64,000 nt of DNA from an uncultured Candidatus Saccharibacteria bacterium (GCA_964589005.1 CAZPQI010000001.1:67675-131674), one strand, 5' to 3'; positions 9,898-37,485 are shown, counted from the stretch's first letter. The notes: generated by a model not told the origin, from the letters alone. Numbers and translations: made by a program.

Positions 9898-10030
9898 AAT
9901 GATTTACTTTCAATGTAAAGTCGTATGGTGATTGTACTCGCTTCAAAGTTTTTTACAAATTTAAATGAGATAATAATTCTTTATACTAATTTTCTTTGCA
10001 TTTATCTCAAAAATTGTTCTAATGCCACAC

Positions 10031-10786
10031 ATGAAGCGCAAAATACAGAGAAAAACCATTCTAACAGGAGGTAGTATCCTTGCGGTATTCATATTGCTCT
10101 TCGGAGCGTTCAGCCAGGCTGGCTTTGTATTCGCTGGGCCGTATCTAATAACTAAAGGAGGGACACTACTAATAGAACAAGCTCGGCCACAAAGTAATGT
10201 CTTCATAGACAACAGGCAAGTTGGCATCGTTGACGCTAAGGGCAAAGCTACATTCGCTCGAATCAAACCCGGTAAGAGAAATATTATAGTGTCAAACGAA
10301 AGTGCATGGCCATGGACATTTGAATTCGTTAGTATTTCAAGCGAATCTATTACTCTTGAACCTTTGCAAGTTAATGTAAAAACAGACGGAGAAGTTATAA
10401 CTGATACGGAAAACCCTCTAAACAGTATCGCTATTGAAGCATTCAAAAACTACCAACCGCCTACACAAGCAAATCCGTTAGAGCGCAGTACTCGAAAAAT
10501 TTGGGTTGTCGGTTCAAATATTTTTATGCAACAAGAGAACGGCGAAGTAATAAATATTTACGCCTCACAAAATACCATTAGAAACATTTTTTGGTATGGA
10601 GATCGTGATGGCATCTTAATCATCGCATCTTTAAATAATGTATTCGCTTTAGATGTAAGAGAAATTCCTGTTAAAAATTTCCAACCGATTTATACAGGCT
10701 CCGCGCCCGAGGCAGTCGACGACGAATCAACATACGACAAAATATTTATACACGACGCCGACGGCTACCTATATATCACTATTTAG
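10031..10786 (+). CDS. hypothetical exported protein (signal peptide; PEGA-like beta region)
   Basis: N-terminal basic and hydrophobic segment (KRKIQRKTILTGGSILAVFILLFGAFSQA) consistent with a signal peptide. No catalytic motif recognised. Confidence 0.45.
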   Translation: MKRKIQRKTILTGGSILAVFILLFGAFSQAGFVFAGPYLITKGGTLLIEQARPQSNVFIDNRQVGIVDAKGKATFARIKPGKRNIIVSNESAWPWTFEFVSISSESITLEPLQVNVKTDGEVITDTENPLNSIAIEAFKNYQPPTQANPLERSTRKIWVVGSNIFMQQENGEVINIYASQNTIRNIFWYGDRDGILIIASLNNVFALDVREIPVKNFQPIYTGSAPEAVDDESTYDKIFIHDADGYLYITI

Positions 10787-10789
10787 AAT

Positions 10790-12313
10790 TTAAATATCAC
10801 TCACTATTTCTATCTGTGCCCCAATATCTGCGAGGCGCTCGGCAATACGCTCGTACCCTCTTTCAATTGAATATACGTTTCGCAATAAAGAAGTTCCCTC
10901 TGCTGCAAGCATGGCAATAAGCACCACCACCGCAGGACGAAGAGCAGGTGGACACACTACCTGTGCAGCTCTAAGTTCTGTTGGTCCTGTTACAAATACG
11001 CGATGTGGATCGGCAAGTTTTACATCCGCTCCCAAACGATTAAGCTCAGTAAAATAAATAGCTCTTCCTTCCCAAGCCCAATCGTGGATTAGAGTAGTGC
11101 CCTTTGCTTGTGTCGCAATAGGAACAAAGAACGGTAAGTTATCAATGTTAAGCCCTGGATACGGTAGCGGATGTATTTTTATGGGAGACGCTTTCAACTC
11201 CGATGGATATATCGTAAGGTCTACAAGTTTCGTTTTTCCGTTTTTGGAAAAATACACTTTACCTTGTTCATACTTTAATCCCATGTATGTAAGCTTAAGT
11301 AACTCGACTTCAAGAAACTCAATGGGGCACCTTTTTATTTGCAGTTCAGACTTCGTTACTGCTGCGGCACTTATAAACATCATCGACTCTATCGGGTCTT
11401 CGCTATTGTAGTGTGTAATTTTTTTGTCTATTTCGTCTACCCCATACACGGTTAGAGTCGTTGTTCCTACCCCATCAATACGTACGCCAAATTGCCGCAA
11501 CAAAAAACAAACGTCTTGTACTTGGTAATTAGGTGGAGCGTACTTTATTACTGTTTTTCCAGGAATCAGCGCCGCTGTCATCAGTGCGTTAATCGCAGCA
11601 GTGTCACTCGCCTCATACATAACAATTTCTGTAGGCTTCAATTTTTTTACTTTAAATGAATAGTGATTTTCGTGGGTTCCTACACGAACACCAAGAGATT
11701 CAAGGGCGTGCTTGTGTGCAGCTATTGTTCTATCACCCATATTACATCCACCAGCGTGTGGAAGCGTAAAATCGCCTTTACGATGCACCATTGCGGGAAT
11801 AAGCATAAGTACCGATCGCATTTTGCTTGCAGCACTTTTGTCTATACTGGAAAGTTTAAAACTTTTCGGGGGGGTGATATGTAATGTGCACTCGTTAAGA
11901 GCATCAACTTGCACGCCAATGCTTTTAAATACCTCAATCAGTCTATGAATTTCTTCTATGCGTGGAATTCCATGTAGCACTGTCGGAGCCTTGTTTAAAA
12001 GAGACGCACACATCAAAGCAAGCGCGCCGTTTTTGGAAGTGTTAGTAACTGCTGTTCCATGTAACTTTTTTCCACCGGTAACTTTAAAGTCTAAACCTTC
12101 TTTTAAACCAACAACTTGATGTTGTAATACATCGCTTATTTTCAATAGTTGTGTTGTAGAAAGGTTCTGGTCACCCTTTTCCATGCGCGCAACTGCCGAC
12201 TGCGAAGTTTGCATTGCTTGTGCAAACGCTTTCTGAGTTAACCCGCGCTTACGACGAAGATCTTTGATAAAAAGTCCAATTTTACGATGTGATTCTGAAG
12301 ACATGGGGTTCAA
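10790..12313 (-). CDS. murA: UDP-N-acetylglucosamine 1-carboxyvinyltransferase with an N-terminal XRE-family HTH domain (fusion)
   Basis: Residues 1-65 form an HTH_XRE domain (LRRKRGLTQKAFAQAMQTSQSAVARMEKG). From about residue 70 the sequence is MurA-like (KVTGGKKLHGTAV...NGALALMCASLL), including the active-site Cys loop HAGGCNMGDR. It is a single uninterrupted ORF. Confidence 0.8.
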   Translation of the reverse strand: MNPMSSESHRKIGLFIKDLRRKRGLTQKAFAQAMQTSQSAVARMEKGDQNLSTTQLLKISDVLQHQVVGLKEGLDFKVTGGKKLHGTAVTNTSKNGALALMCASLLNKAPTVLHGIPRIEEIHRLIEVFKSIGVQVDALNECTLHITPPKSFKLSSIDKSAASKMRSVLMLIPAMVHRKGDFTLPHAGGCNMGDRTIAAHKHALESLGVRVGTHENHYSFKVKKLKPTEIVMYEASDTAAINALMTAALIPGKTVIKYAPPNYQVQDVCFLLRQFGVRIDGVGTTTLTVYGVDEIDKKITHYNSEDPIESMMFISAAAVTKSELQIKRCPIEFLEVELLKLTYMGLKYEQGKVYFSKNGKTKLVDLTIYPSELKASPIKIHPLPYPGLNIDNLPFFVPIATQAKGTTLIHDWAWEGRAIYFTELNRLGADVKLADPHRVFVTGPTELRAAQVVCPPALRPAVVVLIAMLAAEGTSLLRNVYSIERGYERIAERLADIGAQIEIVSDI

Positions 12314-12335
12314 GGGTAATTTCTAATGTAAATAT

Positions 12336-12359
12336 GTTATATCATATATGATATAACAC
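12336..12359. promoter_or_regulatory. 24-bp perfect palindrome tgttatatcatatatgatataaca in the divergent murA/priA promoter region
   Basis: Read from the sequence. It lies 23 bp upstream of the HTH-murA start on the opposite strand. Proposed as an operator candidate. Confidence 0.5.
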
Positions 12360-12366
12360 AAGCACC

Positions 12367-14316
12367 ATGACACCTATGGTATGCTGTGCGCATTGGAGAT
12401 TACCGTCTCCAAAACTCTGTATGTTTATCATCCACGTTACACCAGTTGCCAAAGGAGGCATACATCAACTCTCCTACTTTTCGTCCCAAGAGTTTCCTGT
12501 GGGCACTATTATTCAAGTTCCCTTACGTAAGAAAGAAATCCCCGCATTGGTGCTAGAGCGCGAAGACGCGCGCGCAGTTAAATCAATTTTGCGCACAAAC
12601 GTATACGAAACTCGAAAAGTACGAAAACAAGAAGCCGTGCATATATTTTCTCCTGAGTTTGTAAGAGCAGCACAAACTACTGCGGCGTACTTTGCAACAT
12701 CTGTTGGAAGTATCATTCACAGTTATGTTCCTGCTGCTATTTTAGCTGCTCCGAGTGGAAAAAATTCGCCACAACAAATACCTGGAAAAGATTCCGTACC
12801 ATTTGAAAGATGTGTGCTTCAAGTTCCCCGCCACGCTCGCGTCGAAAAATATAAAGTGCTTATTCGAAACCGATTCGCAAAAGGGGAGTCGGTATTGCTG
12901 TGTGTGTCCACTCTTCGAGAAGCTCGGTTCTTTTACGAGCAATACAGTCGCGGTATTGAAAAATATTCGTTTTTGCTTGAAAGTTCGCAAACTAAGAAGG
13001 TTCAACAAGAAACATGGAATGCGGCTCTTTTGGAAAAACACCCTGTACTGATAGTTGCTACTCCTACGTTTATAAGTATCCCCCGTGGTGATATTTCGCT
13101 TTTTATTTTGGAACACGAGATGTCGTCGGCATATAAACAACAAACGCGACCGCGCGCAGATGCTCGTATAGTAATAGAAAACGTCGCTCGCGAAACTAAC
13201 AGCACCCTACTATACGCCGGAACTACTGTGAGTGTGCGAGTACACAAGTTGCTGCACGATGGTAGTGCACACGAACTCGACGAACAGGTACGCAAGTTAC
13301 GCACCGAAAATACCGTTACCATAGTCGATAGTAAAAAATCTCGTCGCAGCGCACGAGAGGAAAAATTAGATTTCCCCGTGCTCTCTGTACAGTCGCTCTC
13401 TGAGTTGTACGAATGCCAAAAAAAAGGGAGGCTCTCTTTCGTATTCACTGCGCGGCGAGGCATAGCATCACAAACAACGTGCAATGATTGCGACACGACA
13501 ATAAAGTGCGTGCACTGCGAGTCGCCAATGGTACTACACGAAAGCCGCGGGCAGCGCGAATTACTTTGTCATCGTTGTGGAAGCATGCGCGATGCAAACG
13601 AAACGTGTGTCTTGTGCGGTAGTTGGAACTTAGTACCACTTGGTATTGGATCAGAACGAATCGAGCAATTTTTAAAAAAACATCTTCCCGATTCCAAGCT
13701 CTTTGTACTTACCCGCGATACTGCCTCGACACCGACGAAAGCAAAAAAGATAATCGAAGAGTTTTATGCAACCCCTGGAGCAATTCTCATCGGTACAGAA
13801 ATGGCACTCCCGTACCTCACCATTGAAGTTTCGTGCAGTATTATGAGCTCAATAGATTCCTTATTGTGTATTGCCGACTTCCAAATTGAAGAGCGAATTT
13901 TTTCAATCATTGCAATGTTGCGCGAACGAACCAGTACCATTTTACTTATTGAAACTGGATCCCCAGAAAACCCAATGCTCAAACATGCTCAAAATGGTGC
14001 ATTAGCTGAGTACGCAGAAGAAGAACTAAAACTACGCGAACAGCTGCGCTACCCTCCGTATGCTCATATTATAAAAATAACGTATACGGGAACAAAAGAA
14101 GCTGCCATACAAAATATGCAAAAATTTGTGGAATGTACGTACGCAAAATACAAACCACGCGTTTTTTCTGGCTTCATACAAAAAGGTCGCGACGTGCAAC
14201 TCCACGCACTTATACGAATACCAGTGGAGAATTGGCCAGATACAGAACTCGCTGCAATTTTAGAAAATTTACCACTTTCTTTTACTGTTGATGTAAATCC
14301 TGAACGAACTCTTTAA
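12367..14316 (+). CDS. priA: primosomal protein N' (PriA) homolog with degenerate ATPase motifs
   Basis: N-terminal 3'-DNA-binding-like region and a Cys4 zinc-binding insertion (CNDCD...CVHCES...CHRCGS...CVLCGS). Helicase-core colinearity (LLESS..ETW, LIVATPTF) is kept. Where Walker A (GxTGSGKTEVY) should be, the sequence reads QVPRHARVEKY. Where DEEH should be, it reads LEHE. The real start may be at the Met 18 codons downstream. Confidence 0.8.
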   Translation: MTPMVCCAHWRLPSPKLCMFIIHVTPVAKGGIHQLSYFSSQEFPVGTIIQVPLRKKEIPALVLEREDARAVKSILRTNVYETRKVRKQEAVHIFSPEFVRAAQTTAAYFATSVGSIIHSYVPAAILAAPSGKNSPQQIPGKDSVPFERCVLQVPRHARVEKYKVLIRNRFAKGESVLLCVSTLREARFFYEQYSRGIEKYSFLLESSQTKKVQQETWNAALLEKHPVLIVATPTFISIPRGDISLFILEHEMSSAYKQQTRPRADARIVIENVARETNSTLLYAGTTVSVRVHKLLHDGSAHELDEQVRKLRTENTVTIVDSKKSRRSAREEKLDFPVLSVQSLSELYECQKKGRLSFVFTARRGIASQTTCNDCDTTIKCVHCESPMVLHESRGQRELLCHRCGSMRDANETCVLCGSWNLVPLGIGSERIEQFLKKHLPDSKLFVLTRDTASTPTKAKKIIEEFYATPGAILIGTEMALPYLTIEVSCSIMSSIDSLLCIADFQIEERIFSIIAMLRERTSTILLIETGSPENPMLKHAQNGALAEYAEEELKLREQLRYPPYAHIIKITYTGTKEAAIQNMQKFVECTYAKYKPRVFSGFIQKGRDVQLHALIRIPVENWPDTELAAILENLPLSFTVDVNPERTL

Positions 14317-15798: not shown

Positions 15799-15969
15799 AT
15801 GCGTATAAAAGATGTATCTTTTGCCGATTCCGTGCGTGCACGAAACTTGGCCAGCCACAGAGTTAAAGGAAAATTTCGCCTTCTAGAATACGTCGAAACC
15901 GCCAACACTTGGATAATAGAAATTGTTCTCGAGTCTGGTGAACACAAAACGATTAAAGGCAGTATATAA
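15799..15969 (+). CDS. small hypothetical protein (56 aa; below ORF-track cutoff)
   Basis: ATG preceded by AAAGGAG. MRIKDVSFADSVRARNLASHRVKGKFRLLEYVETANTWIIEIVLESGEHKTIKGSI. Followed by a hairpin terminator. Confidence 0.35.
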   Translation: MRIKDVSFADSVRARNLASHRVKGKFRLLEYVETANTWIIEIVLESGEHKTIKGSI

Positions 15970-15987
15970 AACTCTGAAAGTAACTGC

Positions 15988-16018
15988 TACCCCACCTATG
16001 AGGCGCTTTTGCGTCTCA
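15988..16018. terminator. hairpin (tgaggcgc tttt gcgtctca) plus T-run between convergent genes
   Basis: Near-perfect inverted repeat with one G:T mismatch, followed by tttgttt. Lies between the small ORF on the plus strand and hpf on the minus strand. Confidence 0.5.
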
Positions 16019-16035
16019 TTTGTTTACTTACATGT

Positions 16036-16654: not shown

Positions 16655-16774
16655 TACTTTCTATTATATCACGTTGAAAAAACACTTTTCTCGTGTAGAA
16701 TACGGCTCAGTTCTTTCCAAAGTTATATAGATTTTTTCGCTCCGCGGTAGCTCAGTGGTAGAGCAATCGACTGT

Positions 16775-17026
16775 CGAAGGCAGCCTTTGGTAGTAATATC
16801 AAAGTGAAGAACGAGGTGAATTGACTGGAAACCCTAACGTAAAGGCGAGGGCAATCAGCAGCCAAGCTTAATTGAAGGTTCAGAGACTATTCCGAAAGGA
16901 AGTACTATCCATTGTAATTATTTTGCAACTGGACGGGAAGCGCCTCGCATCCTAATCCGATCACGTCAGTGATTTAGGATGGATGATGATATAGTCCACC
17001 CCTTTTGGAAACAATTGGAAAAGGTG
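16775..17026 (+). mobile_element. putative group I intron (approx 252 nt) in the tRNA-Asn anticodon loop
   Basis: The 5' exon ends in U and the intron ends in G. An internal guide GCAG can pair with exon CUGU to form P1. GGAAACCCUAACG, CCAAGCUU and AGAGACUA match elements I recall from small bacterial tRNA group I introns of the Azoarcus tRNA-Ile / cyanobacterial tRNA-Leu type. A GACGGG...AUAGUCC P7-like pairing is present. The size fits that class. Confidence 0.6.
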
Positions 17027-17046
17027 TAATCGATTGGCCATAGGTT

Positions 17047-17064
17047 CGAATCCTATCCGCGGAG
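17047..17064 (+). repeat. direct repeat copy A (tRNA 3' end gaatcctatccgcggagc)
   Basis: An identical 18-mer recurs at 17445-17462. The pair flank the HNH ORF. Confidence 0.75.
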
Positions 17065-17102
17065 CGAAGTAATCTATACTTAAAGAGTGGTAGACTTAAT
17101 AG

Positions 17103-17435
17103 ATGTCTACCACTAAGAAACGAAAAGAAAAACGTACGTACGCCGATCGTCGTGAGTACATGATAAAGGCAGTCGCTAAACGACGCAGAAAGTTACGAAC
17201 TATGGCTTTAGAGCATGGAGGTGGTAAGTGTACGATTTGTGGGTATAAGAAATGCACTAGAGCGCTCACTTTTCATCACCTGGATCCATCTAAGAAAAAG
17301 TTCGGATTATCTGCCAGAGGGATAACTCGCTCATGGGAAAAAACTAAAGCAGAGTTAGAAAAATGTGTTTTGCTATGTATGAACTGCCACATGGAAATAC
17401 ATGATGGAGTTACTAAAGTTCCAAAGAAAAGGTAA
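17103..17435 (+). CDS. HNH endonuclease
   Basis: 110 aa with CxxC...HHLDP...N...CxxCH, a His-Me finger. Lies immediately 3' of the intron-containing tRNA, bracketed by duplicated tRNA 3'-end sequence. Confidence 0.8.
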   Translation: MSTTKKRKEKRTYADRREYMIKAVAKRRRKLRTMALEHGGGKCTICGYKKCTRALTFHHLDPSKKKFGLSARGITRSWEKTKAELEKCVLLCMNCHMEIHDGVTKVPKKR

Positions 17436-17444
17436 TTTTACGTT

Positions 17445-17462
17445 GAATCCTATCCGCGGAGC
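17445..17462 (+). repeat. direct repeat copy B (partial tRNA 3' end)
   Basis: gaatcctatccgcggagc preceded by gtt. One base of the tRNA T-loop (c) is missing. Looks like an att-site-style duplication. Confidence 0.75.
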
Positions 17463-17489
17463 CATCGACATGCAAAAATATTTTTCAAT

Positions 17490-17517
17490 CCATATTTAAT
17501 TACGTAATTAAATATGG
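17490..17517. promoter_or_regulatory. 28-bp perfect palindrome ccatatttaattacgtaattaaatatgg, with a second aattacgtaatt immediately after
   Basis: Lies about 35 bp upstream of the AbrB-like ORF. The TTACGTAA core is present twice. Operator candidate. Confidence 0.5.
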
Positions 17518-17551
17518 AATAAATTACGTAATTCTGCTAAAATCAAAAATA

Positions 17552-17728
17552 ATGGGACGACGCAAACTAAGTGACAAAAACATACGAAAACTAAGTAAAA
17601 TTGGTGGCAAAAGCATCGGTGTCACGATTCCTATTGAAATGGTGCGTAAATTAGGATGGAGAAGTAAGCAAAAGGTTGTTGTAGAAGAAAGAGGCAAGAC
17701 CATTGTCATCAAAGATTGGAAAAAATAA
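17552..17728 (+). CDS. AbrB/MazE/SpoVT-like small DNA-binding protein (58 aa; below ORF-track cutoff)
   Basis: MGRRKLSDKNIRKLSKIGGKSIGVTIPIEMVRKLGWRSKQKVVVEERGKTIVIKDWKK. The pattern (K.G.s..vtIP.e....lg...g..v.v...g..ivI) matches the swapped-hairpin AbrB/MazE fold. Confidence 0.45.
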   Translation: MGRRKLSDKNIRKLSKIGGKSIGVTIPIEMVRKLGWRSKQKVVVEERGKTIVIKDWKK

Positions 17729-17777
17729 AAATCTTAAATTTTTAGAACAAAGGCTTCTAAACCCTTTTTAGATTTTT

Positions 17778-18173
17778 CTATAAAATTTCTTTGTATTCTA
17801 TATAGTTAGTTTGAATCATTTTCTTCCACCAGACAGTCTCGTTATTACCTCTAATGTCATTCTTACAATAAACTAACAATATTTTAACTTCTTTTTTTGT
17901 TTTGTATTGAGCAACAATACATCTATTCCCAGAGGCTTTTGCGGATTCACTTGGTAAAATTTTAAATTCGCACTTATAGATGACAATGTCACTATCCAAA
18001 TCAGAAATAGAACTAGTTACACTCCGATCAATCATTAAATCAAACTTTCTAAGCATCAGAATAAAAGCTGACCACGGAGTGTTAAAAGAACTTTTATATT
18101 TTTTGCGCAAACTCTTTAAGTATAATTTTTCAGCAACACTTTCTGTAGAGACATCGTAATAATTAGTAGACAT
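17778..18173 (-). CDS. hypothetical 131-aa protein, candidate toxin partner of the Panacea-domain protein
   Basis: Overlaps the upstream HTH-Panacea gene by 11 nt, so translational coupling is likely. A weak RelE/ParE-like C-terminal pattern (NRCIVAQYKTKKEVKILLVYCKND). No confident family assignment. Confidence 0.4.
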   Translation of the reverse strand: MSTNYYDVSTESVAEKLYLKSLRKKYKSSFNTPWSAFILMLRKFDLMIDRSVTSSISDLDSDIVIYKCEFKILPSESAKASGNRCIVAQYKTKKEVKILLVYCKNDIRGNNETVWWKKMIQTNYIEYKEIL

Positions 18174-18858
18174 GCTCTGGGTCTTCTTGGGTTATAAGTT
18201 CGTACGGAATAATTGACCCTTTATCGGCAAAAATATATGGTATCTGCTCATGAGTAAACCTTACAATATCCTGCGTATTTGATTTTTTCCAATTATCCCA
18301 GACGTCGTGCATAAGTTTCTCCTCTGCTTTAGAAATAGAGTTTAAAGAATTTTTTTCTGAACCTCGAGTTTCAGAAAAAGAATATGTATCTTTTCCTTCG
18401 TCACTTTTGTGACTTACCACGATACTTCCGTCATCTTCTAATTCTTGAATTGCACGAAAATACGCATCCGGAACTGGGCCGAATTCAATTTTACGATATG
18501 GCATTCCACTTATGCTCTCTTGATGCTTGTAGTACCAAGCGAAGTCAGCAAGATACAAAAGTTTAGCTAGTTTAGTTTTCTTCAATACCTGCCCACTTTT
18601 TTTTGCATCGCGTAAATACGATAGAATCATCTGCTTATACTTTTCATAGTTAGGTGCTTGATTAGATAGAAGCTCTTGAATAGAGATACCAAACATGTCA
18701 GATAGCTTTTGTGCCTCCAGTAAACTAAGTTCTTTTACACCTTTTTCTAAAGAAACGTAAGATGGTCTAGAGATGCCAATCCTCTCAGCAACTTCACCTT
18801 GCGAAAACTTACGGTCTAAACGAAGACTCTTTATAAATTTAAAATAAGTATTACTCAT
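18163..18858 (-). CDS. XRE-HTH + Panacea (DUF4065/SocA-like) domain protein, putative PanA antitoxin/regulator
   Basis: N-terminal HTH (SQGEVAERIGISRPSYVSLEKG). The C-terminal region carries KLAKLLYLADF...GMPY...FGPVPDAY, the conserved core of DUF4065. Confidence 0.65.
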   Translation of the reverse strand: MSNTYFKFIKSLRLDRKFSQGEVAERIGISRPSYVSLEKGVKELSLLEAQKLSDMFGISIQELLSNQAPNYEKYKQMILSYLRDAKKSGQVLKKTKLAKLLYLADFAWYYKHQESISGMPYRKIEFGPVPDAYFRAIQELEDDGSIVVSHKSDEGKDTYSFSETRGSEKNSLNSISKAEEKLMHDVWDNWKKSNTQDIVRFTHEQIPYIFADKGSIIPYELITQEDPEHVY

Positions 18859-19002
18859 AGAAACAGTATACTACATACAAATTATGCTACGTCAACATCT
18901 TATCCACAGGATGTCACCTTTTTGACATCCTAAACGTTACTTGGTAAAATACAAACCACTTCGAGTGCAACGGAGGATTATTAGTTAAGTTTCTCAAAAT
19001 AT

Positions 19003-19146
19003 ATGGGACACAAGAAAGTAACAAGCAAGAGTATGTCTACCAAGGCAAGCAAGGCTTTGCGTAGCGGAAGCACAGGAAAAACTACGAAGTCACTTGCTGG
19101 CTCTACTCTATCGCAAAGCAAGGGGAAACACAGGAAAGGTAAATAG
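19003..19146 (+). CDS. possible 47-aa Lys/Ser/Thr-rich basic peptide (low confidence)
   Basis: MGHKKVTSKSMSTKASKALRSGSTGKTTKSLAGSTLSQSKGKHRKGK, followed by a hairpin (aaaaccga..tcggtttt) plus a T-rich tail. No clear RBS. Confidence 0.2.
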   Translation: MGHKKVTSKSMSTKASKALRSGSTGKTTKSLAGSTLSQSKGKHRKGK

Positions 19147-19289
19147 TAGAAAACCGACCTAAAGGATCGGTTTTCTACAAAAGTTTTATTTCAAGGTCGT
19201 GCGGAAGGGTGACTTTGTTTTTATATACTAGCAATGAATTAGATGTTTAACTAAGAAAATCGTAGGACAAATGTTAATTTGTTTTAAAA

Positions 19290-20453
19290 TTACCGATTTC
19301 CTTTTGCGCGATTGTGTGTTTTACACAACATCTGGCAATTTTTTAGTGAAGTTGCACCACCCTTGCTCCATGCGGCTACGTGATCAGCGTCCATATCACT
19401 CAAGCTCCATACCTTATCCTTGTTAACATCGTGTCCAATAGCACAATGCTGGCAATTTGATTTCCCTTTGGTTTTGGCTGTCTTTGTTTGCGAGGCATAG
19501 ACAGATTTTTTTGTGGCTTCATCAAAAACTCGAACATCAAGAAGTTTTGTATCTTTTTCACCACCTAAAATATATTCAAATACTCCCCTATGATTTCTAA
19601 CATAAGGGTCTGCATATAATTTGTGAACTGTATCAGATAATTTTTTTGGGTTATATCCTTTCTTATGATGTTCTTCATAGAGCCTTCCCCACTCCAAACC
19701 TTTCATTTCACTTTCTATATCGATAAAAGTTTTAGAAACCCAATCAATTACACTACTAAAGTACGTTTCTAATTCACTGATATTAGCATCTTGTCTATGT
19801 TTACTCATATAATCTCCAACTTTTCCACGACTTACCCAATCAAGTGCTTTTGCCAAAAAATCTTGTCTATTAACACTACCCTTGATGTACGCACCCCATT
19901 TCAGAACATTAGAATTTCGTGAATTACTAAACTCTTCTTTTGCAAGTGTTACAAATGGTCCAGAATATATCGCATTGAGAAGTTCTTGTTCGTTTAATGG
20001 CACTCCTGCAATATTAATTGTCTTAAACCACTCTTTTATTTCACTTTCCTTTCCCATGCATTCATAAATTGTTAATTTAGTTTGCATTATTTCTTCTTGT
20101 TTGTCTTTTGAAATACCACTGAAATATTGCTCCATGCCGTTTTCATCTTTAACGGCAAATTTATTAGTTACATATCGTCCAAAGCTAGTGATTCTTTGTT
20201 GTCCATCCAAGACCTCCAAATTATCTTTTCCAACTTTATTGAAATAAATCAAACCTATTGGATAACCTTTCAGAATTGACTCAATTACAGCCACATCTTT
20301 TTTCCCATCAGCATAAATATAATTCCTTTGATACTCTGGCTGAATTTTTAATTTCCCATTTATCCCGAAAAGTCCTTTTCCCTCTAACTCATTATAAACA
20401 AATCCTTCGCAAATCTCTTTTACAGTGTATGTTGTTTTTAGTATTGTTTTCAT
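19290..20453 (-). CDS. DUF262 (ParB-like NTPase, DGQQR motif) + C-terminal HNH nuclease; restriction/defence endonuclease candidate
   Basis: [12 protein letters not shown] is the DUF262 signature. The C-terminus carries CQHC...[12 protein letters not shown]...[15 protein letters not shown], an HNH motif. Its start lies 1 nt after the stop of the upstream methyltransferase. Confidence 0.8.
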
Positions 20454-20454
20454 T

Positions 20455-21618
20455 TTATTTTTTGTGTTTGATTATAATTCTTGAGTATGGAACAACAGCT
20501 TTATCACCAACCATAATATAAAATCTCCATACAGAAGAATGACCTGGAAGAGACTTGTCTATTTCTTTTGGTATAGGAGTTATTCCCAATTTTTTTCCTA
20601 ATGCCCCAATTCCAATTCCAATTATTTCAAATTGTTCTGGGCAATATTTATCCATAAATGATACTGGCACACCCATTTCTCCCTTATAATCATTTGGAAT
20701 CGCTCTTACCATTGGGATATCAATCGCGTCATAATTAGCATATTTTGGATAATAATCTACTTCATACTTCTTTTTTAAATTATTTAATAGAGTAGTATTA
20801 AATTTAAGATTGTCTTTTTCAGACATTAACTGCAGGGGATGGTGCCTAACTCCATGGTCAATATTTGTATACCACCTTATACCATTTACTCTCCAATAAA
20901 ATTTACCATCTTTTATATATGCATTCTTTTCGTCAGACATTTTTTGTGAATCATATAGTTCTTTTGGAGCAATAAAATATGCTGCTCCCCCATTAAAGTA
21001 TGTAGCACCAAGCCACATAATATTATCTTTAATTAAAGGAAAGATTTCTTTATTCGCAATTGTGTTCAAATTCCCTATAATTACAAATTTTTTATTTGCT
21101 TCCAGTATCCAAGCTAAAAACTCTCTAAATAAACTAAATGGAGGATTTGTAATAATTATATCTGCTTCATCTCTTATCTTTTTTACTTCGCTGCTTCTGA
21201 AGTCTCCATCCCCTTTCATGTATTTCCAGTCTAAATCATCTATATCTATCTTATTATCTCCTGTTTTATCTTTTGTAAGAGTAAAAATCTTCCCTTTTAT
21301 TCTGGTTTTCTTTTTGTCAAACCTTGAACTTTTTTCTTCAAAAAGTGTTGTTTCGTATCCCTCCTTATATTTTTTACTTTCTACAGCATAACTTGTAGAA
21401 ACCAATTTTTTTAATTTAAATTTCTCAAAATTCTGTGCAAAGTATTTAGTGAAGTCGCTCCATTCAGGGTCATCGCAAGGTAAGAGAATAACTTTATCTT
21501 TAAAGACATTGGGGTTATATTCAAGATAAGCATTGATCTCTTTTTCAATGTCTTTATATTGTGTATAAAACTCATCGTTTTTTGCATTCTTCGCATCTGC
21601 CAAATTACTTTGTGCCAT
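20455..21618 (-). CDS. DNA amino-methyltransferase (N6-adenine or N4-cytosine), NPPF motif IV
   Basis: [11 protein letters not shown] is the catalytic motif IV of amino-MTases. The N-terminal DEFYT region is present. GC is very low, about 28-30% in sampled stretches. Confidence 0.8.
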
Positions 21619-21688
21619 AATGATTTCAAAACAATCGGGACTAAACCGATTTTATTATTACCAATACTACTCTTTTTGTACAAAAAAG

Positions 21689-22123
21689 CTAAGTTTTGCT
21701 TGAAAAATGCCGTGCAATGAGTTCATGTAAATGCTCCGGATTCTTTACCAAATCAACCAACACTAAACTCTCGGAGACTCCGTTGCGTTCGAGTTCATCT
21801 ACTTCACCCTGTGACGGATCATTATCGAACCAGACGAAGGGTTTTGAAAAGTCGATAGCTTCGGTTTTGTTTTCGCTCCACGTTGTTGGTTTGTATGCGA
21901 GAACATACTGAAAAAGTTCAGACGGGAATATTTTTTGCAGGTGTCGTTGAGCGTTAGTCTCGTCTCCGTGGCGACAGTGTGTAGTAAGCCAATACACATT
22001 GTGGAGCGAGAGAGCTTCCAGAAATTCTTCCAAATGCGCAGCTGGTTTATTGTAATTCGCCAAATCCTCGTGGATTATTGTTCCGTCTATATCTAGGTAG
22101 ATATTTGTTTCTTTGTTTAACAC
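21689..22123 (-). CDS. HAD-superfamily hydrolase (DxDxT motif; nucleotidase/phosphatase-like)
   Basis: IYLDIDGTII matches HAD motif I. 144 aa. Confidence 0.55.
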   Translation of the reverse strand: MLNKETNIYLDIDGTIIHEDLANYNKPAAHLEEFLEALSLHNVYWLTTHCRHGDETNAQRHLQKIFPSELFQYVLAYKPTTWSENKTEAIDFSKPFVWFDNDPSQGEVDELERNGVSESLVLVDLVKNPEHLHELIARHFSSKT

Positions 22124-22162
22124 ACCTTCATTCTAACAGTTAATATTTGCTACACTGGGCAC

Positions 22163-22408
22163 GTGAGAAACAACATGACAATACGAGCGCACGATGAAAA
22201 CATCTTCGCCGAAGGAGGTGGACATTATGTGAGAACTATACCAACACGTGGCCCGAGAGCTCCCTACATTGGATTTATAAAAACAACGCTTGGCGAGGCA
22301 GAGGTTGAGTACGACAACAAGGTGGTTTTTGAAGTGTTGGTGAGTGGCGATGAAATTACCGAGGAAGAGTACAATGATGCTGAAGTAACAGTCTTTAATG
22401 ATATATGA
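22163..22408 (+). CDS. hypothetical 81-aa protein, coupled to the downstream DUF2779 gene
   Basis: ATGA stop/start overlap with the next ORF. Acidic C-terminus. Confidence 0.3.
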   Translation: MRNNMTIRAHDENIFAEGGGHYVRTIPTRGPRAPYIGFIKTTLGEAEVEYDNKVVFEVLVSGDEITEEEYNDAEVTVFNDI

Positions 22409-23889
22409 CCAAAATAAACCTTACAAAAACGGATTTTAAGGAGTACCTACTCTGTAATAAGTGCTTGTGGTTGAAGAAGAAAAAACCAGATGAGTATATA
22501 GATGGGGAATTTTCGCAATTCCTTAAAAAACTGATAAAAGATGGTTACGAAGTTGAAAGGTACGCTCAGGGGTTGTTTCCTGGTGGGGTTTTTGTTTCCG
22601 GGGATAAAGAAACACTAATTAAAAAAACAAAGGAGCTACTAAAGGGCACAAAACCAATTTTCCAAGCGACATTTGAAACTATTGAGGGTCTTTTTGCAAA
22701 AATTGATATTCTCAATTTTAATGAGGAAACTAAAAAGTGGGATTTGTATGAAGTTAAAGCGAGCTCGGACATAAAAACTGATATCCAACACAATCACGTA
22801 AAAGACCTTATATTCCAAACTATTTTGCTAGAAAACGCGGGAGTAGACTTGGGTGAGAGTTACATAATTCACCTCAACAAAGAATACAGGCGTAATGGTG
22901 AAGTAGATATTCATGAGCTTCTTACTACTGAAAACCTAAAAGAGGAAGTGGGCGAGCAAAAAGAAGAAGTGCGAGACGAAATGAACCAAGCGTTAAAACT
23001 ATTGGCAAAAGACGAAATTGCGCTTGATAGTTGCGACTGTTTATATAAAAGCAGTGGTCAACACTGCGACTGTTTTGCAAAGTTTAATCCGCAAGTGCCT
23101 GAATACTCAGTGCACAATATTTTAATGGGTAAGAAGCTTAAAGCTTTGGTGGATGACGGAATTGTAGACATTACAAAAATCCCAGAAAACTTTGAACTTA
23201 CTGATATTCAACAGCAAAAAGTAGATTTACAAAAAGACGAACAGCCGATTATTAATCGCGAAGCAGTGGACGAAGCACTCTCGGGGCTGGTGTATCCAAT
23301 ATACTTTTTCGACTACGAAACGTACCCCTCGCCCATTCCTCCGCTTGATGCGTACAAACCAAACCAACACTTTGTATTTCAGGTTTCTATTCATGCCTTG
23401 CATGAAGACGGAGAACTAGAGCACTTTGAATTTTTAGCAGAAGAAATGGAAGGCTCGACAGAAGCGTTGGTGAATATGATGCGCGATAGTATTGGTGACA
23501 CTGGCAGTATTGTGGTTTGGAACGATGTGTTTGAGAAAGGTAGAAATATAGAACTCGCGGAGCTACACCCAGAAGAAAAGGACTTCCTGCTTGGGTTGAA
23601 CGAAAGAACGTTTGATTTAATGAAAGTATTTAAACGCGACTATACTCGCCCAGATTTTTACGGAAGCGCCTCTATTAAAGCTGTATTACCCGCTATGGTG
23701 CCCGAACTCTCGTACAAAGATTTGGAAGTACAGAATGGAACAATGGCAATGAGTGAGTGGAAAAAGATTATCGATGGTGAACTGGGCCTAAAGAGCGCAC
23801 AAAAGGCTCGTAAAGACTTACTCGACTATTGCGGGTTAGATACGTTCGCAATGGTAGAGATATATAAGAAGATTAAGGAAGAGTCGTAA
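22405..23889 (+). CDS. DUF2779-like protein: N-terminal Cys-containing PD-(D/E)xK-type nuclease region + C-terminal DnaQ-like 3'-5' exonuclease region
   Basis: N-terminal LLCNKCLWL with additional Cys (CDCLYKSSGQHCDC). C-terminal YFFDYETY resembles Exo I (DxE) and LDYCGLDTFAMVEIYKK resembles Exo III (YxxxD). Confidence 0.55.
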   Translation: MTKINLTKTDFKEYLLCNKCLWLKKKKPDEYIDGEFSQFLKKLIKDGYEVERYAQGLFPGGVFVSGDKETLIKKTKELLKGTKPIFQATFETIEGLFAKIDILNFNEETKKWDLYEVKASSDIKTDIQHNHVKDLIFQTILLENAGVDLGESYIIHLNKEYRRNGEVDIHELLTTENLKEEVGEQKEEVRDEMNQALKLLAKDEIALDSCDCLYKSSGQHCDCFAKFNPQVPEYSVHNILMGKKLKALVDDGIVDITKIPENFELTDIQQQKVDLQKDEQPIINREAVDEALSGLVYPIYFFDYETYPSPIPPLDAYKPNQHFVFQVSIHALHEDGELEHFEFLAEEMEGSTEALVNMMRDSIGDTGSIVVWNDVFEKGRNIELAELHPEEKDFLLGLNERTFDLMKVFKRDYTRPDFYGSASIKAVLPAMVPELSYKDLEVQNGTMAMSEWKKIIDGELGLKSAQKARKDLLDYCGLDTFAMVEIYKKIKEES

Positions 23890-23934
23890 ACGTATCGAAG
23901 TTGTTGTTTTAATTTCATAATATATTGCAAGGAT

Positions 23935-24333
23935 ATGAAGAAGAGAAAATCATTACCTAAAAAGCTTCAACTCGAAATATATAATCGAGATTACTGGACT
24001 TGCCAGTATTGTGGAGATCCTGTGTTTTATGTTCAAACCTTGAAACTATTAGAAAAACTCAGTCCAGACTGCGGATACTATCACCCTAATGGTAAATCAG
24101 AGAAAATGCTAAAGCTGTTTTTTAATAAATGGGCTAGTATTGACCACGTAAAACCATTTACAAAATACGGTGAAGACTCACTTGAAAATCTCGTAACAGC
24201 TTGTTGGGAATGCAATCTTAGAATGGGCAACAAAGATGATAAGCAAGGCAAAAGAAAGCCCAGAAAGATCAAAAAGCATCAAAAAACTAAATCTTGGGAT
24301 GGTCTTTACTCCCTTTATGAGAAGCTAAGATAA
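23935..24333 (+). CDS. HNH endonuclease
   Basis: CQYCGD...IDHVKP...N...CWECN. Confidence 0.8.
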   Translation: MKKRKSLPKKLQLEIYNRDYWTCQYCGDPVFYVQTLKLLEKLSPDCGYYHPNGKSEKMLKLFFNKWASIDHVKPFTKYGEDSLENLVTACWECNLRMGNKDDKQGKRKPRKIKKHQKTKSWDGLYSLYEKLR

Positions 24334-24383
24334 AATGAAGAATCTTAGACTCAAAGTGCTATACTAAACGAACAATTGAATAA

Positions 24384-24526
24384 ATTATCAAGAAAGATGT
24401 GAAGGGACTAGCCTTATGACCATCTTAGCAACCTGTCTCTTCGTCCAGATAAGGTGCTCCATCTAGCCTGTATAGGAAAGATAACAATGCATCAGCATCT
24501 TACCCTTCACAGGAAAGATGTTTTTT
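24384..24526 (+). promoter_or_regulatory. SAM-I (S-box) riboswitch with terminator in the metK leader
   Basis: UUAUCAAGAAAGAUGUGAAGGGACUAGCC...GCAACC...AGAUAAGGUGCUCC...AUCUAGCC...GGAAAGAUAA matches the SAM-I consensus blocks (YUCUUAUCAAGAG..GGAGGGACUGGCC...GCAACC...AAGGUGCUAA..CCAGC..GAUAAGA). It is followed by the hairpin catctt...aagatg plus TTTTTT just before the metK start. Confidence 0.8.
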
Positions 24527-24539
24527 AGTGTTAAAAGAT

Positions 24540-25478
24540 ATGAAGAAAACAGCAGAATTCGTAAGTCCAAAGCATCCAGATAAAATATGCGACTATATAG
24601 CGGATATTATATTAGATGCTTACTTGGGTGATGATAAAGATAGCAGAGTGGCCATCGAGGTTATGGGTGGCCACAATCTTGTTACCGTAAACGGAGAAGT
24701 AACGAGCAAGACAACCATAGATATTGAGGGGCTTATAAAAAACATAGTAGGCTCAGATTACAAAGTGATATCTAATGTCGTAGCACAAAGTAGCGAAATA
24801 GCGCGCGGTGTAGACACTGGAGGTGCAGGTGACCAAGGAATAATGAAGGGTTACGCAACAAGCGAGACAGAAAGCCTAATGCCATTAGAGTACGAACTTG
24901 CTCGAAACTTATGTATGAAAATTTTTGAGGTTTATCCTTATGACGGCAAGACTCAAATTACAATCGATGGAGAAAAAGTTACGTCGGTAATTGCTAGTTT
25001 TCAAAATTCTAAAAGTGATGAGCTGTTATCATTAGTAAAAAGTATTATTCAGTCCGAAGAGTACTTCATAAACCAATCAGGAGAGTGGTCGCAAGGTGGA
25101 TTTGATGCAGATACTGGGCTCTCGGGACGAAAACTTATTGTAGATAATTATGGCCCTGAAGTGACCATAGGAGGTGGCTCCTTTTCTGGAAAAGATTACA
25201 CAAAAGTGGACCGCTCGGGAGCATATATGGCTCGAAAAATATCTGTTGACTACCTAAAGAAGCGCTCAGCCAAGGAAGTACATACGAAGTTAGCATATGC
25301 GATAGGAAAACCTGAACCAGTTATGGCAACTGCTATTATAGACGGAAAAGAAATTCCAATAGAGGGGTACAATTTAACACCTGCTGGGATAAGGAAATTA
25401 CTGAAACTAGATAAGCTAAAGTTGTCGACAACCTCTAACTGGGGCCATTTTGGTAGAGGTTTTGAATGGGACGTTTAG
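24540..25478 (+). CDS. metK: S-adenosylmethionine synthetase (compact)
   Basis: Motifs KHPDKICDYIAD, GAGDQG and GGGSFSGKD. The first ATG lies 4 codons inside the tracked ORF, which is GTG-initiated. Confidence 0.93.
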   Translation: MKKTAEFVSPKHPDKICDYIADIILDAYLGDDKDSRVAIEVMGGHNLVTVNGEVTSKTTIDIEGLIKNIVGSDYKVISNVVAQSSEIARGVDTGGAGDQGIMKGYATSETESLMPLEYELARNLCMKIFEVYPYDGKTQITIDGEKVTSVIASFQNSKSDELLSLVKSIIQSEEYFINQSGEWSQGGFDADTGLSGRKLIVDNYGPEVTIGGGSFSGKDYTKVDRSGAYMARKISVDYLKKRSAKEVHTKLAYAIGKPEPVMATAIIDGKEIPIEGYNLTPAGIRKLLKLDKLKLSTTSNWGHFGRGFEWDV

Positions 25479-26133: not shown

Positions 26134-26167
26134 TGACACAAGTTTATCTTAAGATAAACTTGTGTCA
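26134..26167. promoter_or_regulatory. 34-bp perfect palindrome tgacacaagtttatcttaagataaacttgtgtca abutting the phd start codon; TTGACA..16..TAAACT promoter-like element inside it
   Basis: Read from the sequence and checked against its reverse complement. Operator candidate for TA autoregulation. Its geometry implies a leaderless or near-leaderless phd mRNA. Confidence 0.55.
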
Positions 26168-26436
26168 TGAATGCAAACTTAACAAAAAAAAATACCGTGG
26201 GTCTTAAAGAACTGCGCGAGAACATCGAAACATACATTAAACGTGTGAGTAAAGGCGAAGTACTCACTGTTTTTAGACGCTCTACTCCCCTTTTCAAAAT
26301 ATCCCCAGTCGACGCGGAAGAAACTGGCTGGGAAACCATAGTAGATTTCACCAAAAAAACAGGACACGGCGTCCCTGTTGAAGAACTACTAGCCTCAATG
26401 AAAAAGATGCATGGACAAAAATCAAAAGTTTCTTAA
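26167..26436 (+). CDS. Phd/YefM-family antitoxin
   Basis: VGLKELRENIETYIKRVSKGEVLTVFRRSTPLFKISP. Confidence 0.75.
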   Translation: MNANLTKKNTVGLKELRENIETYIKRVSKGEVLTVFRRSTPLFKISPVDAEETGWETIVDFTKKTGHGVPVEELLASMKKMHGQKSKVS

Positions 26437-26653
26437 ACGACTCAGTACTAAAGAATTCTCATCTGTAGAAAAAGCCCTGCATAAAATTAATGTTGGTGAT
26501 ACTAAAAATCTTGATATAAAAAAGTTAACAGGATACCAAGACGTATATAGAGTACGAATTAAAACAATTCGAATTATTTTTCTCATCAACGAAAATCGCA
26601 TTGACGTGCTTGAGATTAGTAGACGAAATGAGAAAACGTATAAAAAATTCTGA
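26411..26653 (+). CDS. RelE/ParE-family toxin
   Basis: YRVRIKTIRIIFLINENRIDVLEISRRNEKTY. Overlaps the phd gene by 26 nt. Confidence 0.75.
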   Translation: MDKNQKFLKRLSTKEFSSVEKALHKINVGDTKNLDIKKLTGYQDVYRVRIKTIRIIFLINENRIDVLEISRRNEKTYKKF

Positions 26654-26728
26654 TATCGTCCTAATTCCATAAGGACAAAATTTCTTACTTATGCTATATT
26701 TTTCATGTTAGTAATAAATACAAAAAAT

Positions 26729-26929
26729 ATGAAAACTCTTAAATGTGATTTATGTGAAGTAACAGCAGACGGCGAGACATTCGAAGAATGGATGAAAGCA
26801 CTTCATCCTCACTATATGGAGGCTCACGCTGATATGATGAAAGGAATGGAGGGAATGAGCGAAGAAGATAAGAAGGAACATATGAAAAAGTGGATGGATG
26901 AAAACAAAGCACGGTTTGACGCTGAATAA
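26729..26929 (+). CDS. DUF1059-like small metal-binding protein
   Basis: MKTLKCDLCEV...HMKKWMDEN. The start is taken at an internal Met. A perfect hairpin terminator follows. Confidence 0.5.
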   Translation: MKTLKCDLCEVTADGETFEEWMKALHPHYMEAHADMMKGMEGMSEEDKKEHMKKWMDENKARFDAE

Positions 26930-28107: not shown

Positions 28108-28251
28108 ATGGCAAAACGAGCAACAGGTATTGAAAAAGGTAAAAAATCCCATTCACGAAAAACAAAAAAACGTCTTGACGTAAAGCACGCAATGCTTGAG
28201 AAAAAAGCAGAAAAAAATAAGTATAAGAACAAAAATAAGGGAAAAAGATAG
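28108..28251 (+). CDS. possible 47-aa highly basic peptide (low confidence)
   Basis: MAKRATGIEKGKKSHSRKTKKRLDVKHAMLEKKAEKNKYKNKNKGKR. Followed immediately by a very strong terminator. Confidence 0.25.
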   Translation: MAKRATGIEKGKKSHSRKTKKRLDVKHAMLEKKAEKNKYKNKNKGKR

Positions 28252-28329: not shown

Positions 28330-28504
28330 CCTCTTAATCAAGTAGCTCCTATAGAGGAAAACCAAGTCGAGTTTGATTTTTTGGGTTGTTTACTGTGACT
28401 AGCTAGGAGAATCGCGAAAGCTTGCTTTCACGATATCCGAGTTACGGCACAATATGGAACGAATTCCATATTTGAAGTATTATAAATTTTTTGTTCAAAG
28501 AAAA

Positions 28505-28705
28505 ATGACACAAGGAACTATCGCTCGCATCATGGATAAAGGCTACGGCTTTATCAAGGTTGAAGGGCAAGAAAAGGACCTTTTCTTTCACTCTAACGAA
28601 CTTCAAAACGCTTCGTTTGACGACCTACAAGAGGGAGACAACGTAGAGTTCGAAGTTACAGAGGGAGAAAAAGGACCACAAGCTGTGAACGTTAGCAAAG
28701 TCTAA
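28505..28705 (+). CDS. cspA: cold-shock protein (CspA family)
   Basis: 66 aa. MTQGTIARIMDKGYGFIKVEGQEKDLFFH... carries the RNP1/RNP2-like motifs. Confidence 0.9.
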   Translation: MTQGTIARIMDKGYGFIKVEGQEKDLFFHSNELQNASFDDLQEGDNVEFEVTEGEKGPQAVNVSKV

Positions 28706-31408: not shown

Positions 31409-31595
31409 ATGTATAACTTTCATAACTACGTATATTTTGAATGAAGAAATAAACGTAGTGATTATTCTGAATTTATGTCTCGATTTCTCCCCGCTTTTCT
31501 TAGGGAGAAATTGCTAGACCACAATTACCACTAACAATCCCTCACGCCTCGAACTGTACGTAGTTCTGCAACTTCTACACTAGTTGCATTTAAAC

Positions 31596-37055: not shown

Positions 37056-37463
37056 CTAACTCTTTACATGCGCAGGACACTTACATCCATGTGGTTTTAT
37101 AAATTCATCCACATATTCTTTTCCATAGTCGTATCCAAGTTCCTCTCCTACTGTAATATTTCTTGTTGCATAAAAGTTAAGTTGTCCTGCTTCGACTTCT
37201 ACCTCTGCATTTGGCTTACAAAAATGATTAATGTATCGCGCAGTATTCTCGCGTGTTGCTCCATCAATTGTATACCACTCGTTTATTTCAAATAAATATT
37301 TTGTCAGTCGTTTGTCTGCTTGCGCTGCTGAAATAAGCTCTCCAGTGTATTCAACTATAAATTCCCCTTTCTGTATTGGCGCTGTTGCAAAAAGACCAAG
37401 CCCCATACCCGTGCTGGCTCGTTTAACTGTAATTTTTGGCTGTGTACTTTGTGTATCTGTCAT
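37056..37463 (-). CDS. SET-domain protein (putative lysine methyltransferase)
   Basis: GLGLFA...IQKGEFIVEYTGE...ARYINHFCKPN...GEELGYDY...C.C post-SET cysteines. Confidence 0.8.
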   Translation of the reverse strand: MTDTQSTQPKITVKRASTGMGLGLFATAPIQKGEFIVEYTGELISAAQADKRLTKYLFEINEWYTIDGATRENTARYINHFCKPNAEVEVEAGQLNFYATRNITVGEELGYDYGKEYVDEFIKPHGCKCPAHVKS

Positions 37464-37485
37464 ATAAGCTGTAAAATATAAGCAC

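Follow-up and report, generated by a model that had tools for sequence, protein, structure and literature searches.

We analyzed a 64,000-nucleotide stretch of DNA, hereafter the window, from a genome deposited as an uncultured Candidatus Saccharibacteria bacterium (GCA_964589005.1, CAZPQI010000001.1:67675-131674). Our subject is positions 17065-24333, a low-GC interval that begins at the 3' end of a tRNA-Asn gene and carries two HNH nuclease genes (HNH1 and HNH2), a toxin-antitoxin (TA) pair, a Type II restriction-modification (R-M) pair and several further genes. The initial annotation had presented the interval as one horizontally acquired defense island at a tRNA integration hot spot. A single island of ~7.3 kb is not what we find, as there is no integrase, no bounding repeat and no uniform composition. 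The interval is probably the left two-thirds of a hypervariable slot between tRNA-Asn and typA that was filled by several events and now lacks an integrase, in the chromosome of a Paceibacteria-type Patescibacterium. The description as horizontally acquired defense cargo fits the TA and R-M modules at 17463-21650, but neither HNH1 nor the right third of the interval.

Composition, synteny and borders of the slot

The interval has a GC content of 35.8%, versus 41.1% in the remaining window (40.5% over the whole window), and is the lowest-GC stretch of the window at scales of 2.3, 5 and 7.3 kb. The direction of the bias reported initially therefore stands, but not its size, which had been put at 28-32% against 42-47% in the flanking genes. 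Profiles of GC and tetranucleotide usage likewise reveal an outlier, though one smaller than the interval: the deviation is confined to 17463-21650 (GC 33.1% versus 41.3%; tetranucleotide z 2-3), and neither 17103-17435 nor 21651-24333 is deviant. Within the deviant part, GC at third codon positions (GC3) gives z scores of -2.1 and -2.6 for the R-M genes, the value for the methyltransferase (MTase) gene (-2.6) being the lowest in the region, and of -1.1 and -1.4 for the TA genes. HNH1, at 40.5% GC, is like background, as is the right third (21651-24333: GC 39.3%, GC3 z -0.5 to +1.8), where a DUF2779 gene has native GC and a HAD-like open reading frame (ORF) reaches 42.5% GC with a GC3 z of +1.8.

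A metagenome scan with the Fmt protein returned 80 loci (best Fmt identity 55%), most of which keep the order priA-def-fmt-HPF(-)-DUF167(-)-tRNA-Asn(+), while a genome scan with MetK (best identity 77%) yielded almost no common synteny. The nearest Fmt loci (L086 and L088-L090), like three closer genomes to which HNH1 led (L164, L166 and L167), are collinear with the window from 3.4 to 17.4 kb. Homology resumes at typA (29603-31423), at 84-87% identity, and extends beyond it; since this is where synteny with the relatives first returns, typA is the true right border. The distance from tRNA-Asn (or the HNH gene) to typA is 0.65 kb in L164, where the slot holds one gene, 3.1 kb in L089, ~3.7 kb in L167, where five genes are called, and 12.1 kb in the window. 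Apart from HNH1, none of the island genes lies between tRNA-Asn and typA in L089, L164, L166 or L167, all of them distant relatives, and the L089 slot has in common with the window only a 74-aa ORF (26705-26929) and a cold-shock gene (28454-28705). Slot content differs in every genome compared, in agreement with the initial view that the region is accessory at this locus. The variable slot is larger than the interval, reaching to ~26.7-29.6 kb, and it includes metK, which had been taken with its riboswitch as the right border.

That tRNA-Asn is a hot spot for integration is confirmed for the lineage, by loci other than the window. The sequences L169 and L170-L173 are 100% identical over 3551 nt and diverge at position 3552, 2 nt past the 3' end of tRNA-Asn, after which L170-L173 carry a Resolvase/Recombinase (serine recombinase) gene and an AAA_25 gene. 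The presence or absence of serine-recombinase elements at tRNA-Asn is polymorphic within a single species. In L090, the gene for a large serine recombinase of 539 aa (12305-13924) overlaps the end of tRNA-Asn, and helicase, ParB-like and Dam-type methylase genes follow several kb past it, beyond an MltG-like gene. The window itself is without a recombinase: among the ORFs from 17 to 29.6 kb, searches of Pfam, NCBIfam and PADLOC found none with an integrase or recombinase domain.

An exact second copy of the final 18 nt of tRNA-Asn (GAATCCTATCCGCGGAGC, 17048-17065) lies at 17445-17462, and the two copies enclose 397 nt that hold HNH1 alone. The repeat is also present in a same-species contig (L081). 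No third copy exists in the 64-kb window on either strand at up to five mismatches, including the regions near 24.3 kb, where an attachment-site (att)-like repeat had been anticipated, 26.7 kb and 29.6 kb; the sole second copy is the one at 17445-17462, which may be a fossil tRNA end or an att-like scar. Duplicates of the tRNA-Asn 3' end occur downstream in several relatives as well: L088 (+191 nt; 11849-12039), L095 (+179; 15848-16028), L117 (+951; 13291-14241) and L180 (2256-2437). The ~180-nt inserts of L088, L095 and L180 contain an inverted T-loop-like GGATTCGAAA motif. Those of L088 and L095 align poorly to each other and demonstrate no shared element, and Rfam gave them only sub-threshold matches to microRNA and leader families, which we regard as chance. 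In the window, repeat copy 2 is followed directly by a 40-nt AT-rich, near-perfect palindrome (17484-17523; 20-nt arms, 90%), which could be an old tRNA terminator or a recombination site.

These observations bear on the alternative that 17065-24333 is one ~7.3-kb defense island, brought in by a single integration into the 3' end of tRNA-Asn, with its integrase and right att since lost. The interval does begin right after the tRNA, relatives carry recombinase-borne elements at exactly the same site, the tRNA 3' end has a fossil copy, and, HNH1 aside, none of the interval's genes is found at the site in any relative examined. The locus indeed resembles tRNA-associated islands in its position directly 3' of a tRNA, its R-M, TA and nuclease genes, its low-GC core, the duplicated tRNA 3' end, a content that varies among relatives, and the use of the same tRNA as an active serine-recombinase target in those relatives. 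Unlike integrase-borne islands, it has no integrase, its repeats enclose 397 nt and not the cargo, and its composition is mosaic, with native genes and metK inside the slot. Given the lack of a right-end repeat at up to five mismatches, a repeat that brackets HNH1 only, the conservation of HNH1 at this position in relatives without the cargo, a right third with native GC and GC3 and a lineage-typical DUF2779 gene, and the return of synteny at typA and not at metK, a single integration is unlikely. A slot filled by several events accounts for the locus better, and we adopt that reading below.

The gene content given in the initial annotation is sound, and each listed gene is present at its position. 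The features of the slot and its borders are as follows.

16741-16774, + strand: 5' exon of tRNA-Asn(GUU), ending ...CUGU (sequence reading)
16775-17026, + strand: group I intron of 252 nt without an ORF (Rfam RF00028, 77.9 bits, E 4.5e-18)
17027-17066, + strand: 3' exon of tRNA-Asn, whose final 18 nt (17048-17065) form copy 1 of the direct repeat
17103-17435, + strand: HNH1 (PF01844, 21.5 bits, cut-off 21.4)
17552-17728, + strand: orphan MazE/AbrB-fold small ORF, 58 aa (PF04014, 2.9e-7)
17778-18173, - strand: putative toxin, 131 aa, of predicted RelE/HigB-superfamily fold (fold model; no Pfam match)
18163-18858, - strand: PanA-like antitoxin with helix-turn-helix (HTH) and Panacea domains (PF13274, 3.5e-15; PF01381, 9.8e-13)
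19290-20453, - strand: GmrSD_N/DUF262 protein with C-terminal HNH domain, candidate Type II restriction endonuclease (REase) (PF03235, 1.9e-21; PF01844, 5e-7; PADLOC REase_II, 1.7e-82)
20455-21618, - strand: EcoRI-family N6-adenine MTase (PF13651, 8e-118; PADLOC MTase_II, 1.9e-80)
21689-22123, - strand: HAD-like small protein (DxDGT motif; weak NCBIfam HAD-IB match, E 0.022)
22163-22408, + strand: 81-aa ORF (no reliable family match)
22405-23889, + strand: DUF2779 protein with a Cas4/RecB-like N-terminal nuclease region (PF11074, 2.6e-34; PADLOC Cas4, 6e-6)
23935-24333, + strand: HNH2, stand-alone zinc-ribbon and HNH nuclease (PF01844, 1.2e-10)
24382-24487, + strand: S-adenosylmethionine (SAM) riboswitch (Rfam RF00162, 49.7 bits)
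24528-25478, + strand: short metK, 316 aa (Pfam)
29603-31423, - strand: typA/bipA, the first gene where synteny with relatives resumes

HNH1 and the tRNA-Asn group I intron

The tRNA-Asn gene (16741-17066) is interrupted at anticodon position 35/36 by a 252-nt group I intron, for which the Rfam match spans 16725-17018. At its boundaries, the U before the 5' splice site pairs with the G of GCAG and the terminal nucleotide is G; once joined, the exons fold into a canonical tRNA-Asn(GUU) of 73 nt. Because the gene is split by the intron, ARAGORN with default settings reports no tRNA anywhere in the window. A tRNA-Thr(UGU) label, which the program assigns when introns are allowed, was rejected because it places the splice site at a U-A and not at the U.G pair of P1, and because the tRNA body matches the tRNA-Asn of relatives. 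The interval is therefore next to tRNA-Asn, as initially annotated, with the qualification that the tRNA gene is intron-split and that the first island gene starts at 17103. Insertion at 35/36 in Patescibacteria tRNA-Asn has been described, and splicing demonstrated experimentally (PMC13011429). The 5' leader (16726-16747) and 3' trailer (17057-17078) complement each other, lengthening the acceptor stem into a helix of 22 nt (91%), a complementarity also seen by eye in L164 and L166; the helix may serve pre-tRNA processing or intron folding.

HNH1 starts 38 nt downstream of this intron-bearing gene, and, judged by its genomic associations, it is best regarded as a partner, conserved in position, of the tRNA-Asn group I intron and not as the defense cargo it was first taken for. 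The family comprises 625 homolog clusters at 64-85% identity, and a CxxC...HH...N...CxxCH pattern is conserved in 120 homologs. All nine homologs sampled for context lie inside an intron-containing tRNA-Asn gene or at most 250 nt from one. Orthologs embedded in the intron, between the 5' exon and the ribozyme core, are 65-70% identical to HNH1 and occur in L139, L108, L169-L173, L174-L176 and L177. Free-standing copies accompany a tRNA with an ORF-less intron, either downstream of it (the window, L166, L167/L168 and L180/L181) or divergent from it (L164 and L182/L184). In the embedded copies of L139 and L108, read at the DNA level, the last codons (TQLP) overlap the internal guide sequence GCAGC. 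With the C-terminal QL[PST] motif as a proxy for the embedded state, which was right for 10 of 10 context-inspected members with a readable motif (four embedded, six free-standing), 70 of the best 120 of the 625 clusters look embedded and 46 do not. As ~40% of these best 120 clusters lack the tail motif, one endonuclease family appears to exist in both free-standing and embedded form in one bacterial lineage.

The loci obtained through Fmt provide an unbiased sample. Here the HNH1 gene is present at none of 25 intron-less tRNA-Asn loci and at two of five intron-bearing ones (Fisher p=0.036 when the comparison uses the 19 intron-less loci in which 600 nt or more are available on each side of the tRNA). 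The protein is also strongly conserved, being 78-84% identical where Def, Fmt and HPF are 48-57% and PriA 39-42% identical, a level on par with MreB and TypA. Such conservation points to continual homing across lineages or, alternatively, to a host function gained by domestication. Ahead of the HNH1 start, at 17088-17096, lies the extended -10-like motif TGGTAGACT, and by eye L139 has its counterpart TGGTATAAT at 12515-12523 ahead of the embedded HNH start; a TGGTAnAnT motif of this kind stands 6-10 nt before the HNH ATG in free-standing and embedded copies alike. This arrangement suggests that promoter and HNH gene form a self-contained, nearly leaderless cassette. HNH2 was considered as a paralog of HNH1 and rejected, as the two sequences show no similarity.

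Several homologs carry the automatic name '5-methylcytosine-specific restriction endonuclease McrA' (JGI), a weak PADLOC match to 'Effector endonuclease' exists (E 0.0012), and the high conservation would fit a host-beneficial gene. HNH1 could on these grounds be a McrA-like restriction or defense nuclease that lies near a tRNA by chance. We consider this quite improbable, given the nine of nine sampled members in or beside intron-containing tRNA-Asn, the absence of the gene from the 25 intron-less loci, the overlap of the last codons of embedded forms with the intron's internal guide sequence, and the fact that PMC13011429 independently names the embedded HNH ORFs homing endonuclease genes.

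That study sought endonuclease genes only inside introns of more than 500 bp, identified four HNH cases in tRNA-Asn, and judged the Patescibacteria tRNA introns to be mostly without homing endonucleases and limited in mobility. The window has the same tRNA, insertion site, intron type and HNH family as those tRNA-Asn(GUU) introns, but unlike the embedded cases its intron is without an ORF and the HNH gene stands 38 nt downstream of the tRNA, an arrangement that PMC13011429 does not mention. A precedent comes from phages, where ORF-less group I introns are moved by free-standing endonucleases such as T4 mobE/I-TevIII, a process known as collaborative or trans homing (Zeng et al. 2009; Bonocora & Shub 2009; reviewed in PMC3984707). 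The likeness lies in an ORF-less intron beside a free-standing HNH gene and in the presence of both states in related genomes. The differences are that the setting here is a bacterial chromosome, that the host gene is a tRNA gene and not a protein-coding one, that the endonuclease is unusually conserved, and that homing is deduced from gene arrangement. We tentatively suggest that many 'endonuclease-less' tRNA-Asn introns of Patescibacteria might be served in trans by an adjacent free-standing HNH gene, although this is the less probable outcome.

Cargo modules and lineage-typical genes

The two genes of the R-M pair abut, with the MTase gene immediately upstream of the REase gene, and the EcoRI_methylase match (PF13651) covers the full length of the MTase. 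The closest annotated relatives of both genes sit on plasmids from three phyla (Pseudomonadota, Bacillota and Actinomycetota), always in the same abutting MTase-then-REase order: in Moraxella osloensis the REase is 67% and the MTase 58% identical, in Enterococcus faecium the values are 64% and 52%, and in Rhodococcus and Arthrobacter the REase is ~62% identical (MTase 55% in Arthrobacter). The pair is also found in L036. Since the REase is 62-67% identical across phyla, as against 39-57% for housekeeping proteins within Paceibacteria, and the GC3 of the genes is the lowest in the region, sequence comparison shows the pair to be a horizontally mobile two-gene cassette that crosses phyla, and horizontal acquisition, as proposed in the initial annotation, holds for these genes. 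The cassettes of pSKB0120-6 (M. osloensis) and pBN83-1 (E. faecium) have the same domains, order and orientation, but the pair in the window, unlike them, is chromosomal and resides in a Patescibacterium. By analogy with its domains, the MTase would protect host DNA by N6-adenine methylation (m6A), and the DUF262-HNH nuclease would cut unmethylated DNA. Elsewhere a DUF262 N-domain typically marks modification-dependent GmrSD enzymes, whereas the nuclease in the window is paired with a methylase.

In the TA module, the antitoxin has an N-terminal HTH_3 domain and a Panacea (SocA-like) domain (PF13274) at residues 97-207, and its gene is overlapped by 11 nt, on the same strand, by the toxin ORF. 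The 131-aa toxin has no Pfam match and belongs to a family of 32 clusters. Its alignment-based AlphaFold model (predicted local distance difference test score, pLDDT, of 87) retrieves in Foldseek almost exclusively RelE, HigB2, YoeB and YafQ, at probability 1.00 and with 1wmi_A as the best match (E 7e-4, TM 0.55/0.78). The pair is probably a PanAT-type type II TA system, in which the toxin is probably a ribosome-dependent mRNase neutralized by direct binding of the antitoxin. It resembles the described PanAT systems (Kurata et al. 2022, PMC8832971) in having an HTH-Panacea antitoxin upstream of, and overlapping, a small toxin ORF, and differs from them in that the toxin comes from a small, Pfam-less family placed in the RelE/HigB superfamily only by its predicted fold. 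Between the TA and R-M modules, a spacer of 431 nt contains, at 19003-19174, an unannotated 47-aa ORF rich in lysine and serine (MGHKKVTSKS...) and after it a hairpin that resembles a terminator; another 47-aa ORF, similarly basic, is present at 28108-28251. Just past metK, still in the variable slot, 26167-26653 likely holds a second TA pair, an 89-aa Phd/YefM-like ORF that overlaps an 80-aa ParE/RelE-like ORF, both with weak Pfam matches below the cut-offs.

The right third has another character. The DUF2779 gene, which overlaps the 81-aa ORF (together 22163-23889), has 1902 homologs, and the best 120 of these, at 54-71% identity, come mostly from Yonath-, Kaiser- and Paceibacteria; plasmid matches are only 33-36% identical, and no phage matches were found among its homologs. 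With native GC and such widespread Patescibacteria homologs, it looks like a lineage-typical gene of this group, and its initial assignment to imported defense cargo is withdrawn. HNH2 is absent upstream of metK in 79 relatives. Sequence searches against solved structures gave no informative matches for DUF2779, the REase or HNH1. MetK is of the short, 316-aa form typical of Patescibacteria, and its best relatives, at most 77% identical, come from Nomurabacteria and Paceibacterota metagenome-assembled genomes, which places the window in a Patescibacteria genome. The gene is adjacent to tRNA-Asn in L061, where riboswitch and metK follow the tRNA after ~115 nt, and in L153 and L158, where metK is back-to-back with it; it is absent from the slot in L089, L164 and L167. 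L012 has two metK copies 7 kb apart (2185-3114 and 10001-10933).

The notion that nothing was acquired here, and that low GC merely reflects AT-rich native genes and intergenic DNA in a rearranged, fast-evolving genome of the candidate phyla radiation (CPR), can appeal to a modest GC gap (5 points over the whole interval), to similar GC3 in other window genes (37056-37487, z -2.2) and to loose Patescibacteria synteny around metK, yet it is very improbable in view of an REase closer to plasmid genes of three phyla than housekeeping proteins are to one another within Paceibacteria, a GC content that is the lowest in the 64 kb at all scales, tetranucleotide z scores that reach 3, and strongly syntenic flanks around a slot whose content is different in each genome.

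A probable layered history of the slot

A slot filled by several events can be described as three layers. The first (17066-17462) would be a unit of tRNA trailer, promoter and HNH1 that travels with the tRNA-Asn group I intron. HNH1, a gene of the homing-endonuclease family that is free-standing beside the tRNA in this clade, most likely cuts intron-less tRNA-Asn alleles, whereupon repair would copy the intron, its exon flanks and the HNH gene, as in collaborative or trans homing. The second layer (17463-21650) is low-GC, probably horizontally acquired selfish or defense cargo, namely the MazE-like ORF, the PanAT-type pair and the Type II R-M cassette. The third (21651-24333) consists of genes of native composition, lineage-typical or of uncertain origin, that are merely housed in the slot.

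As for the order of events, the unit of leader, tRNA, intron, trailer and HNH1 is presumably old in the clade. The second 18-mer would mark an older 3' end of tRNA-Asn, to which the low-GC cargo was once joined directly, as in L170; the unit with the complete tRNA would have been interposed later, either by homing or gene conversion with an illegitimate join at the T-loop or by att-type recombination. On the former route, the 18-nt duplication could have been left behind by a homing event that ended in such a join. The TA and R-M modules would have arrived horizontally, with their recombinase since lost, and the other genes would reside in a slot whose content each lineage reshuffles.

Several points count against this account. 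The TA genes deviate only mildly in GC3, and palindromic hexamer counts in the window, also used to seek the R-M target, do not reveal clear restriction avoidance (GAATTC, 23 observed and 23.3 expected). HNH1 clears the Pfam HNH cut-off by 0.1 bit, and conservation at 78-84% is unusual for a selfish endonuclease, so that a host function is possible. The repeat may have arisen by a homing-associated illegitimate join, as a recombinase att scar or by target duplication. The nearest relatives are distant (Fmt at most 55%), and the absence of the genes from them may partly reflect general rearrangement. No same-species genome with an empty site was among the matches found, exact-protein look-ups having given only short contigs (L080-L083, L178 and L179). 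One of these, L178, is collinear with the window across 17633-19630. Two others end in unrelated, Bacteroidota-like sequence (BNR/Sortilin; 39% and 47% GC), L083 at 1-675 and L179 at 1-196, joined at window positions 19322 and 18967, respectively. These ends are probably assembly chimeras, and we draw no conclusion from them; they could also be real variants in which one more gene separates the TA and R-M modules.

As a defense islet, the locus is an ordinary, decayed accessory slot of multi-event origin that adds one more R-M pair and one more TA pair to the catalog. It shows that ultra-small CPR genomes still carry plasmid-type selfish modules common to Proteobacteria, Firmicutes and Actinobacteria, and that recombinases target tRNA-Asn in the lineage. 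The partnership of a free-standing HNH gene with an ORF-less intron, at the very edge of the interval, might be the only feature new to a specialist, and modestly so; for annotation, the HNH gene closest to the tRNA belongs with the group I intron of tRNA-Asn instead of with defense. If the partnership is real, it would be a chromosomal, cellular example of a passage documented to date in phages, that from collaborative homing to a composite mobile intron. The free-standing HNH gene qualifies the view of PMC13011429 that Patescibacteria tRNA introns seldom move. Should HNH1 act in trans, intron mobility in the CPR would have been underestimated, and this locus and its relatives would offer 'before and after' states in the assembly of a mobile intron.

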